Source: Candidatus Falkowbacteria bacterium RIFOXYC2_FULL_36_12 (GTDB taxonomy: Bacteria > Patescibacteriota > Patescibacteriia > UBA11705). From it: a stretch of DNA of 64,000 nucleotides. How positions within the stretch are numbered: the first letter of the stretch is position 1; each line of letters starts with the position of its first letter. The notes under the pieces are model-generated. The model worked only from the letters and a program-made list of their open reading frames with translations. It ran no database searches and had not been told where the DNA came from. A program made the position numbers and the translations under genes. The DNA lies in contig MFGJ01000007.1 in assembly GCA_001778235.1 (NCBI GenBank), positions 77,085-141,084 of the forward strand. Reading direction: 5' to 3'. Positions 4,167-63,795 of this stretch are shown piece after piece.

Positions 4167-4418
4167 ATGTCAAGGGGAAATGGTAAAAGATTACCTCTGA
4201 CTCTAGTTATTTCCAGGACTGAAACAGGAGTGAATGTTCGCCTGAAAAATGCACCTGAAATTTTTGAGGTTTCAACCATTTCTGTCGCCGATGCTGTGGG
4301 AAAACTGCTTATGGGTCACCCTGATCTGTTTGGAGTGTTATGTGGTTTTAGCCATGACCCAATGACTCAAGGCTTTCTAGCCAACCCAATGAATTCTCTC
4401 AAATACACTGTTGATTGA
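4167..4418 (+). CDS. Hypothetical small protein
   Basis: 83-aa ORF preceded by an AAGGAGGG Shine-Dalgarno (SD) sequence and a TTGACA-like -35 element. Confidence 0.4.
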   Translation: MSRGNGKRLPLTLVISRTETGVNVRLKNAPEIFEVSTISVADAVGKLLMGHPDLFGVLCGFSHDPMTQGFLANPMNSLKYTVD

Positions 4419-6365: not shown

Positions 6366-6450
6366 AAACTAAAACAGACTAAATTGTCTGTTGTTTTTTT
6401 TAATGCTATATTATAATAAACAATCTAATAATAAATATATACTTGCTATG

Positions 6451-6678
6451 TTTAAATTTATTATCATCGGACTGGTCATGGTGACTCTGATCATCATAGC
6501 GTGGTCACCTTGGATGTCGCAGGATGAAAGCTCGGCTATAATTTATCAAACTGCGGCGATAACCAAAGATGGTGAACGATGCACAGAACAACAGTGGACT
6601 GCAACCTGGGCGCCATTTGGCCGTATGGTCCGCCATTGCGACCGCAGTTGGTATGTCGGCTTCTGGGAGGCATTATAA
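6451..6678 (+). CDS. Small membrane protein (TM + Trp/Cys-rich tail)
   Basis: Internal Met start MFKFIIIGLV. One TM helix. Confidence 0.3.
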   Translation, partial: FKFIIIGLVMVTLIIIAWSPWMSQDESSAIIYQTAAITKDGERCTEQQWTATWAPFGRMVRHCDRSWYVGFWEAL

Positions 6679-12481: not shown

Positions 12482-12772
12482 TTATCTCACTAACTCATAT
12501 TCATCGCCCAAGACTTGTTGCAGAGTGGTAATAATAAATTCATCATCGCGGTAATTTTCTTTTTCCGCATAATAAATCTCGAGCCGAGTACTTCGATATG
12601 AGATGTGCCAATTTTTGCCAAGTCGTACCTCCAGTTTATGGGCTAAGTCATGGGGTACTTGTTGCACCCCGTCCAATGAAAAAACATACTCGTCTTCATG
12701 ACCAGCAATGCCATATTCAATAAAAGCTCTTGTTTTTATTTGTTCGAAATTCATGGTTTTAGAATTATACAC
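12482..12772 (-). CDS. Hypothetical protein
   Basis: 96-aa ORF. TATAAT lies immediately upstream, so the transcript is possibly leaderless. Confidence 0.5.
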   Translation of the reverse strand: MYNSKTMNFEQIKTRAFIEYGIAGHEDEYVFSLDGVQQVPHDLAHKLEVRLGKNWHISYRSTRLEIYYAEKENYRDDEFIITTLQQVLGDEYELVR

Positions 12773-12949: not shown

Positions 12950-13056
12950 GGTGACAAGTGTGAGGTGGTGACAAGTGTGAGGTGGTGACAAGTGCGAGGT
13001 GGTGACAAGTGCGAGGTGGTGACAAGTGATTGATGGTGACAAGTGGGGTTATTTTT
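12950..13056. repeat. Tandem array of about 6 copies of the 17-bp unit GGTGACAAGTGYGAGGT
   Basis: Directly visible. Copies are contiguous with no spacers. The array lies between tsaB and the downstream ORF. Confidence 0.9.
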
Positions 13057-13477
13057 TACTTTTGGTAATATTAGGTTTTTTGCCATATTCAGGAATAGCG
13101 ATCTGCTTGAACGAATTGTTGGTTGTCTTTTTGGAGACTTTCAGACCATCGGACCAAACCTTTTCCATTTTTTGTTTTTCCTCAAGTCCTAAATAGATTT
13201 TTTTTAATTTAATCCCATAAACCGGAATATCTAAACCATAAGCCAAAGCATTAGCAGTAGCACAACCAATACGCAAGGCTGAAAAATCACCAGGGCCAAT
13301 CACCACAAATATTTTTTCCAACCCTGACAAATCAGCTGAAATAATCTGTTTGATTTCTTTTAACAATAGCTCCGACTGCTTGAAAGCCTGATTAATGGTT
13401 TTCATTTTTGTAATATTCTCTTGTCCAATTGCAATAGAAAAACAAGAATTTGACTCTGTTGATATAAGTAAATTCAT
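13049..13477 (-). CDS. tsaB: tRNA t6A biosynthesis protein TsaB (short form)
   Basis: LISTESNSCFSIAIG … VVIGPGDFSALRIGCATANALAYGLDIPVYG matches the TsaB/YeaZ N-domain. Start taken at MNLL. Confidence 0.65.
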   Translation of the reverse strand: MNLLISTESNSCFSIAIGQENITKMKTINQAFKQSELLLKEIKQIISADLSGLEKIFVVIGPGDFSALRIGCATANALAYGLDIPVYGIKLKKIYLGLEEKQKMEKVWSDGLKVSKKTTNNSFKQIAIPEYGKKPNITKSKK

Positions 13478-13479
13478 AC

Positions 13480-14877
13480 CTAGTTTTGAATTATAACGGC
13501 TGTCCCTTCTGGAGTCCATTGGTATAGCCAATCTGCATTTGGTAGAGAAACATTAACACAACCATGACTCATCTTGTGGCCCCAATTGTTATGCCAGTAA
13601 GCACCGTGAATAGTAAATGGCCCCTTGAATGACATCACATCTGGAACATTGGGTAAATCATAATTATTTGGATTGTCTGGACCATAGAACCAGCTCATGC
13701 GTACAAGAGGGCGTTTTTTGAAAATGTAAAATTTACCGATTGGTGTGTCAAAACCGACCTTACCCGAAGAAATTAAAAAACTTTTTATTAATCTTCCCCT
13801 TTCATAGGCATACAATCTCTGTTCAGATATATCTACTTTTATAGCTTTCCCAGTAAGAGATAAAGTTGTATCAGCAGAAATAGTTTGAGGCAAAACAGCA
13901 ATCTCATTATTGTCAGACCCAAATTTTCCAAGCGCCACATTTATTCCACCACGGAAATTTTCTTCATAGGCAAAAAATTTGGGGTTTATTTTTACATTGC
14001 CATCAAGATCAAAAAATCTAACATGAGGGCCACCACTATATCCGGCAGCAGTTACAATCATGGGCTGTCCAGCTATCAAGTCCGCCTCAACATCAACTCC
14101 ACCACGGAAATGTTCAGCATAAGCAAGGAATTGTTTTAACTGCTCACCCTTATTATTAAAAACTTGAATTAATGGTGCACTACCAATTCCAGCGCCTAAG
14201 ATAATTTCATCAGCGCCATCATTGTTTAAATCAAAACTGGCAACTTTTTTTGGTTCAAAAGCCTTATCCGCTGGACTAGAAAATGATGGAAATATTTCTT
14301 GACCAGATGCACTGAAAAATTTTACTATATTTCTTCCATCTTGAAGCAAACTAATAATTATATCAGGCATGCCGTCAGAATTAACATCTCCAACATTTAC
14401 TTCCAGTCCGCCCCTAAAACCTTGATCATAGGCAAAAAAACCATTTGAGAATTTAGGATTACCAAAACCATCAAAAACTCGGACTTGTGGTCCTCCACCC
14501 TCTCCTGGTACAGTTACGATTTCATCTTTGCCATCGCCATCAAAATCCGCGGCCGCAAGATTAATCTTGCCTTCATAACCCACAGGATATGGTTGCCATT
14601 TATTTATCAAACTTCCATCGTATCGATAAAGTGCAACCTCTGGACGAGACTGATATCCGTAACTGACAATAATTTCATTAATATTATCCCCACCCAAATC
14701 TACGAGGGAAAAATCCATTACCCCCTGAAAACCATCTTGAACCAATTTCAGATCTTTGGTTGAGACTAGAGTGCTTGAGTTAAAAGCTCGGAAATCCAAG
14801 CCAGCTGCACTGACAGAAGAAACAGCCAGGAAAACTCCAACCGTTGCCACGAGCAATATAATTATATTCTTTTTCAT
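13480..14877 (-). CDS. Secreted FG-GAP repeat protein fused to L,D-transpeptidase (YkuD) domain
   Basis: Signal peptide, then repeated DxDxDGxxD(E)I FG-GAP/Ca-binding motifs. C-terminal HG…SHGCVN catalytic motif of L,D-transpeptidases. Confidence 0.75.
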   Translation of the reverse strand: MKKNIIILLVATVGVFLAVSSVSAAGLDFRAFNSSTLVSTKDLKLVQDGFQGVMDFSLVDLGGDNINEIIVSYGYQSRPEVALYRYDGSLINKWQPYPVGYEGKINLAAADFDGDGKDEIVTVPGEGGGPQVRVFDGFGNPKFSNGFFAYDQGFRGGLEVNVGDVNSDGMPDIIISLLQDGRNIVKFFSASGQEIFPSFSSPADKAFEPKKVASFDLNNDGADEIILGAGIGSAPLIQVFNNKGEQLKQFLAYAEHFRGGVDVEADLIAGQPMIVTAAGYSGGPHVRFFDLDGNVKINPKFFAYEENFRGGINVALGKFGSDNNEIAVLPQTISADTTLSLTGKAIKVDISEQRLYAYERGRLIKSFLISSGKVGFDTPIGKFYIFKKRPLVRMSWFYGPDNPNNYDLPNVPDVMSFKGPFTIHGAYWHNNWGHKMSHGCVNVSLPNADWLYQWTPEGTAVIIQN

Positions 14878-61310: not shown

Positions 61311-61883
61311 TTACTTATTATCAAAAAGCCCCTCTTCTTTCATTTTTTTTAATTCATCTGTTTTTATTTTACTTTGCTGTTCAAGATAATATTTATTAAC
61401 ATTGGGAATCAACTTCAGCCAAGTTTTAATTAATTCAAGAATTTTTTCGAATTGAACTTTGGCAGATTTTAGCAGAAGTGAAATTTTCGAAGCTGTTTCC
61501 TCACCCATTCTTTTGAACTCCACTTGCTCATCCGGAGTCATTGACTTGTAATCATCTTCTAATTCCTGCTGAAGAACGCCTTCGACTTCGAGCTGAACAG
61601 GATCTTTTTGCGCTTGAGAAACTTGTAGGGTTTGAGCAGAAGTAATTGAACCAATTTCTTCCTTGTGAGCTTCAAGTTCTTTTTTTACATTCTCATGCTC
61701 TTCAATAGTTTTTTTCTCTTCTTCAGCTACTGTTTCAAGAGCTCTTTCAGGTTGGTCAACTGGCGCCGGAATAGCCTCTTGTTTATTTAAAGTTTGCTCA
61801 ACAATATCCTGTGAAGTCTGCAATTCGGGATTTAAGGTGGGCTTTTCTGGCTCTTGGGTATTTTGTGTTTTTGTTACTGCCAT
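61311..61883 (-). CDS. Hypothetical acidic coiled-coil protein
   Basis: 190-aa Glu/Gln-rich protein. Confidence 0.5.
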   Translation of the reverse strand: MAVTKTQNTQEPEKPTLNPELQTSQDIVEQTLNKQEAIPAPVDQPERALETVAEEEKKTIEEHENVKKELEAHKEEIGSITSAQTLQVSQAQKDPVQLEVEGVLQQELEDDYKSMTPDEQVEFKRMGEETASKISLLLKSAKVQFEKILELIKTWLKLIPNVNKYYLEQQSKIKTDELKKMKEEGLFDNK

Positions 61884-62004
61884 ATTAATATAAAATAATT
61901 CTAATTAGACATAGTAATTATATCAATTCTGTCCAATCCAGTAAATAGCAAAAACCAGTAAATCTTGAATAAATAAATAGTTCAAGCAAAACAAGTTACC
62001 TCTA

Positions 62005-62033
62005 TTGACTTTTTTAGTTATTTATGATATAAT
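62005..62033 (+). promoter_or_regulatory. Consensus extended -10 sigma70 promoter (TTGACT-N17-TGATATAAT)
   Basis: Directly visible, 35 nt upstream of the GC-rich ORF. Confidence 0.55.
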
Positions 62034-62068
62034 AATTAGTTAGAAAAAGAAACTGAATTGGGGTAGCA

Positions 62069-62287
62069 ATGGAAAATCTGTTGGTGCAAATAGTGTTCCT
62101 GATGGCAATCTTCTACGGGCTGTTCGTGATGGTGCTCGGCACCAAGCGGGTCAACAAGTATGTGGGCAAGATGACCAAGAAAGCCTTGAACTGGCTGGTC
62201 AGACTGCCATTCAGGCTGATCCGCTGGAGCTGGCGCAAGGCGTTTCCGCGCCGGCGTAGGCAGAACCGTAGAAGAGCCCAGCCCTGA
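62069..62287 (+). CDS. GC-rich (about 58% GC, GC3 about 80%) small membrane protein with Arg-rich tail
   Basis: 72 aa: MENLLVQIVFLMAIFYGLFVMVLGTKRVNKYVGK…RRRRQNRRRAQP. There is strong third-position GC periodicity. The stop codon overlaps the perfect hairpin AGCCCTG-acac-CAGGGCT. Confidence 0.5.
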   Translation: MENLLVQIVFLMAIFYGLFVMVLGTKRVNKYVGKMTKKALNWLVRLPFRLIRWSWRKAFPRRRRQNRRRAQP

Positions 62288-62407
62288 CACAGGGCTAGCG
62301 CAGTCAACTCGCCTCGTGGTCAAATGATCGCGGGGTTTTGCTTTTGGAAAAGAAAAAAGCTTGCCTTCCACTAATTACAAATTAGCCACGAATCTACAAA
62401 TCGATAT

Positions 62408-63373
62408 TTAACTAAGTTGTTTTAAGGTTTTTTTTACATCAGACAAGTTTTCAACTCTGACAAGTTTTGCTCGCCAATCACTAGCACCAGGAAAACCCTT
62501 CAGATACCAACAGAGATGTTTGCGGATTTCTAAAAAAGCTTTATCGTTTTTTGATTTTGATAATAGTTTTGCATGCTTTAGTGCAACTTTTTTTATTTGT
62601 TCTAGATCGAATTCAGAATATTTTCCGTTTTGAAGATAATCATTGATTTGTTTGAATAGCCATGGCTTGCCGTATAGTCCTCTAGCTAAACCAACGCCGT
62701 CAACGCCTGTTTTGTCGAGCATTTCCTTGATGTCTTCGGGTGTATTTAAACCTCCATTGCCCAAAACAACACCCTTGAATTTTTCTTTGGCCAGCTTGAT
62801 GGAATCAAAATCAATTGAACCGCTGAAACCCTGTTCATAAGTTCGGCCATGAAGCATCAGAGCTGAAACATTGTAATCTTTTATTTTGTCGAGAAAATCA
62901 AAAACCGTGATTTTTCCAGTTTGATCTTTTTTGTTAATTGAAATTCTGGTTTTTATTGATACTGGGATTGAAGCAGATTCAACTGTTGCATGGACTATTT
63001 CTTGTGCTAAATTCAAATCCCGAAGTAAAGTTATTCCGCCTTCATGAGCCACAACTTTTTTGGCTGGACAGCCAAAGTTTATATCAATGCCGTCAAAACC
63101 AGCTTCTTCTACTCGTTCAACTGCTTTTTTAATTAGCTCTGGTCTTTTGCCGAAAAGTTGTAGTACAACTTTACCTTCTTTCTTATGATTAAAATCAAGT
63201 AGCTCAAGTGTTGTTTTCCCTTTATAATACAAGCCATCAATTGAAGTCATTTCAGTGTAAACAACATCTGCACCAAAGCTATAACACAACTGGCGAAAAG
63301 CTGAATCTGAAATTCCTGCCATGGGGGCTAGGGCGAGGATCGGTTTGTTGAATTTGTTCCAGAAATTGGACAT
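62408..63373 (-). CDS. tRNA-dihydrouridine synthase (DusB-like)
   Basis: LAPMAGISDSAFR N-terminus. TIM-barrel flavoenzyme motifs. Confidence 0.85.
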   Translation of the reverse strand: MSNFWNKFNKPILALAPMAGISDSAFRQLCYSFGADVVYTEMTSIDGLYYKGKTTLELLDFNHKKEGKVVLQLFGKRPELIKKAVERVEEAGFDGIDINFGCPAKKVVAHEGGITLLRDLNLAQEIVHATVESASIPVSIKTRISINKKDQTGKITVFDFLDKIKDYNVSALMLHGRTYEQGFSGSIDFDSIKLAKEKFKGVVLGNGGLNTPEDIKEMLDKTGVDGVGLARGLYGKPWLFKQINDYLQNGKYSEFDLEQIKKVALKHAKLLSKSKNDKAFLEIRKHLCWYLKGFPGASDWRAKLVRVENLSDVKKTLKQLS

Positions 63374-63423: not shown

Positions 63424-63795
63424 CTAACTGTCTGATTTGTTTTTCTTTTTCAATATTGATAAATTAAGACTATAGAGCATCCTACCACATTCATCATATT
63501 GATCCAAAAAATAGTTTAGGCGTTCTTTTTCTAAATAACTTTTACGATGAGCAATCTTCAAATGATGAACAGTTTCCCGTATTTCACCCTGGGCTCTAGA
63601 AATAGATATTGAATAGATTTTCGTATATTTATTACCAAATCCTTCCGCTAAATTTGCAGGTGCTGAATTAGATGACCTTCTAAGCTGTGAACCTATTTCG
63701 TAAAGTTCATATTTGGGAAATTCTAATGTCAAATAATGAATTTCTATAGCCAAATTGAATAATTTATTGTAGACAATCAAATCATCAACCTTCAT
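63424..63795 (-). CDS. Four-helix-bundle protein (23S rRNA intervening-sequence protein family)
   Basis: Same family pattern as 37515-37886 (…FP..E.Y.IGSQLRRSSNS…NLAEG…). Confidence 0.7.
   Translation of the reverse strand: MKVDDLIVYNKLFNLAIEIHYLTLEFPKYELYEIGSQLRRSSNSAPANLAEGFGNKYTKIYSISISRAQGEIRETVHHLKIAHRKSYLEKERLNYFLDQYDECGRMLYSLNLSILKKKNKSDS

Follow-up and report, generated by a model that had tools for sequence, protein, structure and literature searches.

Among the smallest bacterial membrane proteins, E. coli YohP, AcrZ and MgrB have fewer than 100 amino acids and one membrane helix, and are encoded by single-gene units with their own promoter and terminator. Short membrane proteins undergo post-translational insertion, as they are too short for co-translational SRP targeting (PMC7549839), and structure and nucleotide content of the E. 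coli yohP mRNA determine its translation-independent membrane targeting (PMC10066597). Comparable arrangements are encountered in other systems. Type I toxins, such as Hok, Fst, TisB, AapA1 and the lysine-tailed toxins of Clostridioides difficile, combine a small hydrophobic peptide and a charged C-terminal tail with a highly folded mRNA, and phage holins display one membrane helix followed by a highly charged C-terminus. In TatA/TatE proteins (MttA_Hcf106), a membrane helix follows a short N-terminus and is joined through a Gly-x-Lys hinge to an amphipathic helix, beyond which lies a charged tail.

Here, a 64-kb stretch of DNA from a Candidatus Falkowbacteria genome (hereafter designated as the window) was found to contain a small GC-rich gene that resembles each of these systems in part. 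The picture that emerges is probably that of an inherited single-gene membrane-protein unit, whose GC richness is under selection, the likeliest target being a stable mRNA with an open start.

Composition and architecture of the GC-rich island

A windowed GC profile identified the island as the strongest outlier of the 64 kb, with a 200-nt peak of 0.595 against a mean of 0.354 (sd 0.045). The GC content amounts to 55.3% over positions 62055-62345 and to 57.8% over 62090-62340, and the boundaries with the surrounding sequence are abrupt. On the plus strand, a 72-codon ORF (62069-62287) encodes a small membrane protein of 72 aa (MENLLVQIVFLMAIFYGLFVMVLGTKRVNKYVGKMTKKALNWLVRLPFRLIRWSWRKAFPRRRRQNRRRAQP), with a GC of 0.557 that is distributed as 0.48, 0.40, and 0.79 over codon positions 1, 2, and 3, respectively. 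This GC3 is 12.9 sd above that of the 64 host ORFs of the window (0.288 +/- 0.039, maximum 0.41), and GC1 and GC2 are host-like. Given the amino acids of this ORF and the synonymous usage of the host, 25.2 GC-ending codons were expected and 58 were observed (z = 9.1). These values agree with an initial annotation made from the letters of the sequence, which had estimated a GC of about 58% and a GC3 of about 80%. The same annotation had described the flanking genes as AT3-biased and about 33% GC; the bias is real (GC3 0.27-0.29), but their overall GC is higher, at 36-41%.

Abrupt GC boundaries are also what an assembly chimera or a contaminant insert would produce. Practically no weight can be given to this explanation, since a 7.8-kb JGI contig and an independent groundwater contig from ENA carry the island base for base, the latter crossing both the AT-to-GC and the GC-to-AT junctions before continuing into dus, and homologues of the gene are found at this site in other genomes.

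The signals surrounding the ORF are those of a complete gene. A sigma-70-type promoter (62005-62033, plus strand) is composed of a -35 box TTGACT (62005-62010), a 17-nt spacer, and an extended -10 element TGATATAAT (62025-62033). With 11 of 12 consensus positions and the TG extension, it matches the native consensus promoter proposed in the initial annotation. Transcription is predicted to start near 62040, followed by an AT-rich 5' UTR of about 29 nt (62040-62068) with a Shine-Dalgarno-like GGGG (62060-62063) located 5 nt before the ATG. At the other end of the ORF, a perfect 7-bp hairpin with a 3-nt loop (62280-62296), AGCCCTG (62280-62286)-ACA-CAGGGCT (62290-62296), encloses the stop codon TGA (62285-62287), as had been noticed earlier, and a comparable 6-bp hairpin, GACCUG-AAC-CAGGUC, covers the stop codon of a homologue (locus L049, see below). 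The initial annotation made no mention of the intrinsic terminator (62311-62346), which consists of an 11-pair stem (62311-62336) and a T run TTTGCTTTTG. In the predicted fold of the mRNA, most of the coding region is closed by a perfect 10-nt long-range inverted repeat (62109-62275), formed by TCTTCTACGG (62109-62118) and CCGTAGAAGA (62266-62275), which was not conserved among homologues. As deduced from these elements, the island constitutes a self-contained transcription unit of about 306 nt with a single gene, in which a strong extended -10 promoter is followed by a short AT-rich leader with its Shine-Dalgarno sequence, the ORF, the stop-codon hairpin, and the terminator.

Two other interpretations of the same segment were considered and rejected. 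In a minus-strand ORF of 111 aa (62036-62371), GC is highest at codon position 1 and no promoter is present, so that it was regarded as non-coding. An 8-nt inverted repeat surrounding the island (TAATTAGT, 62033-62040, and ACTAATTA, 62370-62377) raised the possibility of a miniature mobile element, which was discarded because chance alone should yield AT-rich 8-mers of this kind and the repeat does not include the -35 box.

Over the window as a whole, the minus strand carries nearly all of the long ORFs. Another small ORF forming a single-gene unit (6448-6678, plus strand) runs opposite to its neighbours; its 76-aa product has a membrane or signal-anchor helix at the N-terminus (MFKFIIIGLVMVTLIIIAW...) and a tail rich in Cys and Trp. 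The GC3 of this ORF is likewise elevated, at 0.52 versus 0.29 for the host, its mRNA shows no excess folding (z = -0.35), and a promoter-like TTGTCT-17-TGCTATATT is found upstream. A moderately GC-rich stretch between ORFs 12482-12772 and 13049-13531 contains a 17-nt tandem repeat (GGTGACAAGTGCGAGGT, 12950-13045; 5.6 copies, 93% match).

Homologues at the dus/mreB site and the origin of the gene

Homologues of the 72-aa product are scarce in protein databases. An exhaustive phmmer search of 1.84 billion representative proteins returned a single one, P0122, a 79-aa protein with 42% identity (E = 1.8e-5), whose gene is found on a 471-kb contig (L049) of a Parcubacteria-type genome. This gene occupies the same site as that of the window: it is divergent from an operon encoding the acidic protein, MreB, a glycosyltransferase and the DNA polymerase III delta' subunit, and convergent with dus. 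A word-indexed search of 5.8e9 proteins retrieved only the query itself, and its repetition with a 3-sequence profile revealed no further members because most ORFs of the family are not called as genes. Scanning a genome collection with the Dus protein detected distant relatives only (<= 38% identity) and no sibling genomes.

Syntenic loci were thus gathered from the contigs of close Dus homologues and from a metagenome scan, and the strand opposite to dus was read for small ORFs. Eight further membrane-helix ORFs were recognized at this site (L132, L050, L052, L048, L125, L047, L134, and L130), bringing the family to ten members with the window gene and that of L049. A family HMM recovered these ten alone, and the window has no paralogue. 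The acidic-protein/mreB flank is present in eight of the nine homologue loci (L047, L048, L049, L050, L052, L125, L132, and L134); in the ninth, L130, the gene is downstream of dus but the locus ends before this flank. All ten members have the promoter layout TTGAC[AT]-N14-TG[AC]TA...T upstream, a Shine-Dalgarno sequence, and a terminator-like hairpin with a T run after the stop. Judged by Dus homologues, the organism falls within Parcubacteria/Patescibacteria, and those matches that carry a name are Candidatus Falkowbacteria. Comparisons between members gave saturated pS values of 0.62-0.78 and pN values of 0.41-0.53.

Twelve loci, the window included, share the dus/acidic-protein/mreB synteny, and the gene is found in ten of them. 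The initial annotation had pointed to the distribution among sibling genomes as informative, and the outcome is twofold: the presence of the gene at nine related loci speaks for inheritance, and it is absent from L046 and L051. Being missing from two syntenic relatives, one of which has the closest dus gene, the gene is dispensable.

Several local rearrangements were observed around this site. In L046 and L047, which have the closest dus genes, an inserted corA separates dus from the small-gene site (L046 6800-7800, L047 5976-6896). The position of the small gene in L046 is taken by an AT-rich gap with a 60-aa Cys-rich ORF, likened by eye to a zinc-ribbon transposase fragment. In L134 (4120-4470, minus strand), and identically in L135, a frameshift divides the family gene: the part encoding the membrane helix stops at 4279, and the remainder, coding for the polybasic C-terminal region rich in Trp (SLVWWILTAPFVGLYRAIQRSRSRPRP...), is read in a different frame as far as the terminator. 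This split gene, in a locus whose Dus protein is that of NCBI Candidatus Falkowbacteria RIFOXYC2_FULL_48_21, may represent a pseudogene or a programmed frameshift, or result from a sequencing error.

Neighbouring genes of the window were also inspected. The conserved acidic protein (61311-61883, minus strand), with homologues in L047, L048, L132, L134, and others, is in every case encoded directly upstream of mreB. Its net charge is -13 in the window and ranges from 0 to -34 in relatives, it has no Pfam match, and its C-terminal region carries the motif W[LF]K[ML]IPGVNK[YF][YF]LEQ.SKIK.D. A gene for a 23S rRNA intervening-sequence protein (63424-63795, minus strand; PF05635, E = 3.6e-27) adjoins dus. 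Another PF05635 copy was found at a different position in L047 (8758-9132), which suggests that these small genes move around.

The initial annotation had explained the composition of the island by a recent acquisition from a high-GC donor, possibly an actinobacterial host, so that its GC3 would reflect donor codon usage before amelioration. The extreme contrast with the host (GC3 z = 12.9) and the absence of the gene from the syntenic relatives L046 and L051 are compatible with this scenario, which we nevertheless consider highly improbable. No homologue was identified in high-GC taxa among the 1.84 billion representatives, the only match being the Parcubacteria-type P0122 at the same site, and blastn and tblastn searches against phages and plasmids yielded nothing meaningful at the DNA or protein level. 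Nine other related loci have the gene at the same position, under a host-type promoter, and the host-like GC1 and GC2 also argue against a foreign origin.

Codon composition within the family provides a further argument. The GC3 of the small gene exceeds that of the adjacent dus in six of the nine members compared, with differences of +0.51 in the window, +0.29 in L049, +0.35 in L132, +0.31 in L050, +0.54 in L052, and +0.36 in L048; the excess is only about 0-0.1 in L047, L134, and L130. The six members have GC3 values of 0.56-0.82 and mutually saturated synonymous sites, in genomes of 34-42% GC. As synonymous sites have been fully turned over and yet are GC-rich in several lineages, the GC content is maintained rather than carried over from an unameliorated import. 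The gene is vertically inherited in a clade of Parcubacteria resembling Falkowbacteria, at a site that is fixed, with dus on one side and the acidic-protein/mreB operon on the other, and the persistence of its GC richness would be due to selection, not to a remnant of transfer.

The protein product and its known counterparts

The 62069-62287 ORF is a genuine protein-coding small ORF, as supported by the Shine-Dalgarno sequence and start codon, the 3-base periodicity, the conservation of amino acids, and pN < pS. The 72-aa product has an N-terminal membrane helix at about residues 4-24 (nt 62078-62140). From there, a Gly-x-Lys hinge leads to an amphipathic helix rich in Trp and Arg and then to the polybasic tail PRRRRQNRRRAQP; the net charge of the product is +17. 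The single membrane helix and polybasic tail read from the letters at the outset were both recovered. AlphaFold2, run on a 2-sequence alignment, predicted a helix spanning residues 2-58 and a disordered tail (mean pLDDT 74.5). Across the ten members, the membrane helix ends with [YQH]G..[MI]V.G.K and precedes an amphipathic segment rich in Trp, Arg, and Lys, which reads W.L...PFR.I.W.WR in the closest pair, with a polybasic tail usually next. Every member is cationic (net +3 to +19) and contains 2-6 Trp, with lengths of 61-120 aa. Searches of Pfam, NCBIfam, PHROGs, PADLOC, and PDB revealed no family matched by more than one member, all matches being weak. By sequence comparison, these proteins represent a new, lineage-specific family of small single-pass membrane proteins that matches no known one.

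Following the positive-inside rule, the N-terminus would be outside and the C-terminal part cytoplasmic. The Trp/Arg-rich amphipathic helix would then rest on the inner face of the membrane, ending in the disordered polybasic tail, whose probable ligands are anionic lipids, nucleic acid, or an acidic partner. For the latter, the conserved acidic protein specified by the divergent gene that precedes mreB is a speculative candidate.

The product combines one membrane helix with a polybasic tail, an architecture that led the initial annotation to qualify it as holin- or type I toxin-like, and only this architectural likeness has stood. Under such a hypothesis, the gene would encode a membrane-damaging peptide, the translation of which is kept low by a folded mRNA and rare codons. 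The strong promoter, the over-folded mRNA (see below), and the location of the AUG and first codons in a predicted local hairpin are in line with this hypothesis, but the accessibility of the Shine-Dalgarno/AUG region equals or surpasses that of synonymous permutations, so that the sequestration of the ribosome-binding site found in type I systems does not appear to be selected here. A consensus scan detected no antisense sigma-70-like promoter in the window transcript or in eight of the ten members altogether, and the two remaining members have only weak matches (9/12). In contrast to typical type I loci, which are mobile or duplicated, the gene occurs in one copy and keeps its synteny in species between which dS is saturated, and with 61-120 aa, its products are larger than most type I toxins. 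The resemblance to holins is likewise restricted to the protein: no phage genes or lysis cassette occur nearby, the neighbours being mreB and the genes of the acidic protein, Dus, and the 23S rRNA intervening-sequence protein; no holin match in PHROGs or Pfam was common to the family, every match in these databases concerning one member only (E > 0.003), and tblastn against phages was empty. No toxin, holin, or defence family was matched. A toxin or holin function is thus unlikely.

From its short N-terminus through the membrane helix, the Gly-x-Lys hinge and the amphipathic helix to its charged tail, the product recalls the layout of TatA/TatE. This relationship was rejected: hhalign gave a probability of 4.9% against TatA sequences, though the alignment fell exactly at the hinge, neither Pfam PF02416 nor a TatA structure of the PDB was matched at E <= 10, and the tail is basic in the family versus acidic in TatA. 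The small E. coli proteins YohP, AcrZ, and MgrB share the general layout of the family, with fewer than 100 aa, one membrane helix, and a single-gene unit having its own promoter and terminator. The family differs from them by the lack of any sequence relationship, by its long cationic Trp/Arg-rich cytoplasmic extension, and by a distribution confined to a Parcubacteria clade. To our knowledge, a gene-specific GC3 excess of 0.3-0.5 has not been described for proteins of the YohP/AcrZ/MgrB type.

Folding of the mRNA and a proposed selection on codon composition

When compared to dinucleotide shuffles, the predicted transcript is over-folded (z = -3.79; -3.09 for the opposite strand), and so are those of L049 (-3.58) and L132 (-3.08). 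In a stricter test, the protein and its codon set were kept and synonymous codons were permuted. The minimum free energy remained lower than expected in the window (z = -3.06, reached by 0/200 permutations), L049 (-2.48), L132 (-2.57), and L048 (-2.23), with values of about -1.4 in L050 and L052 and of about 0 to -0.9 in the other four members; 24 control segments from host genes had a mean z of -0.17 (sd 0.69, minimum -1.51). The trait is therefore not universal: three of nine members have little GC3 excess, and four of ten have no excess folding. The 3' UTRs of the members are also GC-rich, and the unpaired probability of the region from the Shine-Dalgarno sequence to the AUG is at least that of synonymous permutations in all of them. 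Codon-aligned consensus folding (alifold) was no better than its permutation null (z of +1.5, +0.8, -0.7, and +0.3), a comparison of low power given that the sequences were few and very divergent.

Most structured RNAs of AT-rich genomes form GC-rich islands, and the functional product could be such an RNA, either non-coding or dual-function with a secondary ORF. Folding z-scores of -3 to -3.8 in three homologues, in excess of synonymous permutations, and the GC-rich 3' UTR go in this direction. Yet, no Rfam match was obtained at gathering score over the whole 64-kb window, be it to 6S RNA or to the SRP, RNase P, and tmRNA families that the initial annotation had named as matches that would refute it; lowering the threshold to E <= 10 over 61850-62450 returned only noise (E 3.9-9.4), and ARAGORN found no tRNA or tmRNA in the window. 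The strong GC3 periodicity, the Shine-Dalgarno sequence, the homologues with their conserved amino-acid motifs, and pN < pS uphold the early preference for a protein, and the consensus folding reveals no conserved architecture. An RNA as the functional product is accordingly quite unlikely.

Other explanations were sought for the GC-ending codons. Their rarity in the host agrees poorly with a simple selection for strong expression. Translational selection was discarded, as the other ORFs of the window, including any ribosomal-protein-type genes, have a GC3 of at most 0.41, indicating that GC-ending codons are not the preferred set of the host. A TCAACT motif shared by the 3' UTRs of three members was no commoner than other hexamers, and a pairing between 5' and 3' regions in the L132 fold, involving the anti-Shine-Dalgarno, was inconsistent across members; neither was retained. 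Since no base-pairing pattern is conserved, the cause may also be unrelated to RNA, and could lie for instance in a constraint on the DNA or in a local bias of mutation.

Selection for a compact and stable mRNA body, in which the ribosome-binding site is left open, would be the likeliest cause of the GC richness. Excess folding with an accessible start and no conserved architecture points to a compact or stable message, and not to a riboswitch-like RNA or to the lock-down of a toxin. Such a GC-rich fold would provide a message that is long-lived, targetable to the membrane, or both, for a protein too short for co-translational targeting. A bolder and less probable proposal, which we advance as tentative, is that the GC-rich, over-folded mRNA is itself part of the function, as an unusually stable message, as one that docks at the membrane or translocon without translation, or by serving in addition as a regulatory RNA. 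If so, this function would hold synonymous sites GC-rich against the AT pressure of the genome over long evolutionary time, and the gene would offer a natural, conserved case of a gene-specific codon composition set by selection on mRNA structure.

These observations add an unannotated family of small membrane proteins, which gene callers frequently overlook, next to the mreB operon of Falkowbacteria-like Parcubacteria. The gene is otherwise ordinary in kind, and its unusual element is that a conserved, gene-specific excess of GC3 goes together with over-folded mRNAs, in genomes that are AT-rich and streamlined. They also illustrate that an extreme compositional outlier in a streamlined AT-rich genome need not be foreign DNA, being here an old resident gene. 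With its 219 nt, this gene is a small and tractable case for asking whether selection on mRNA structure or stability can override a genome-wide mutational bias.
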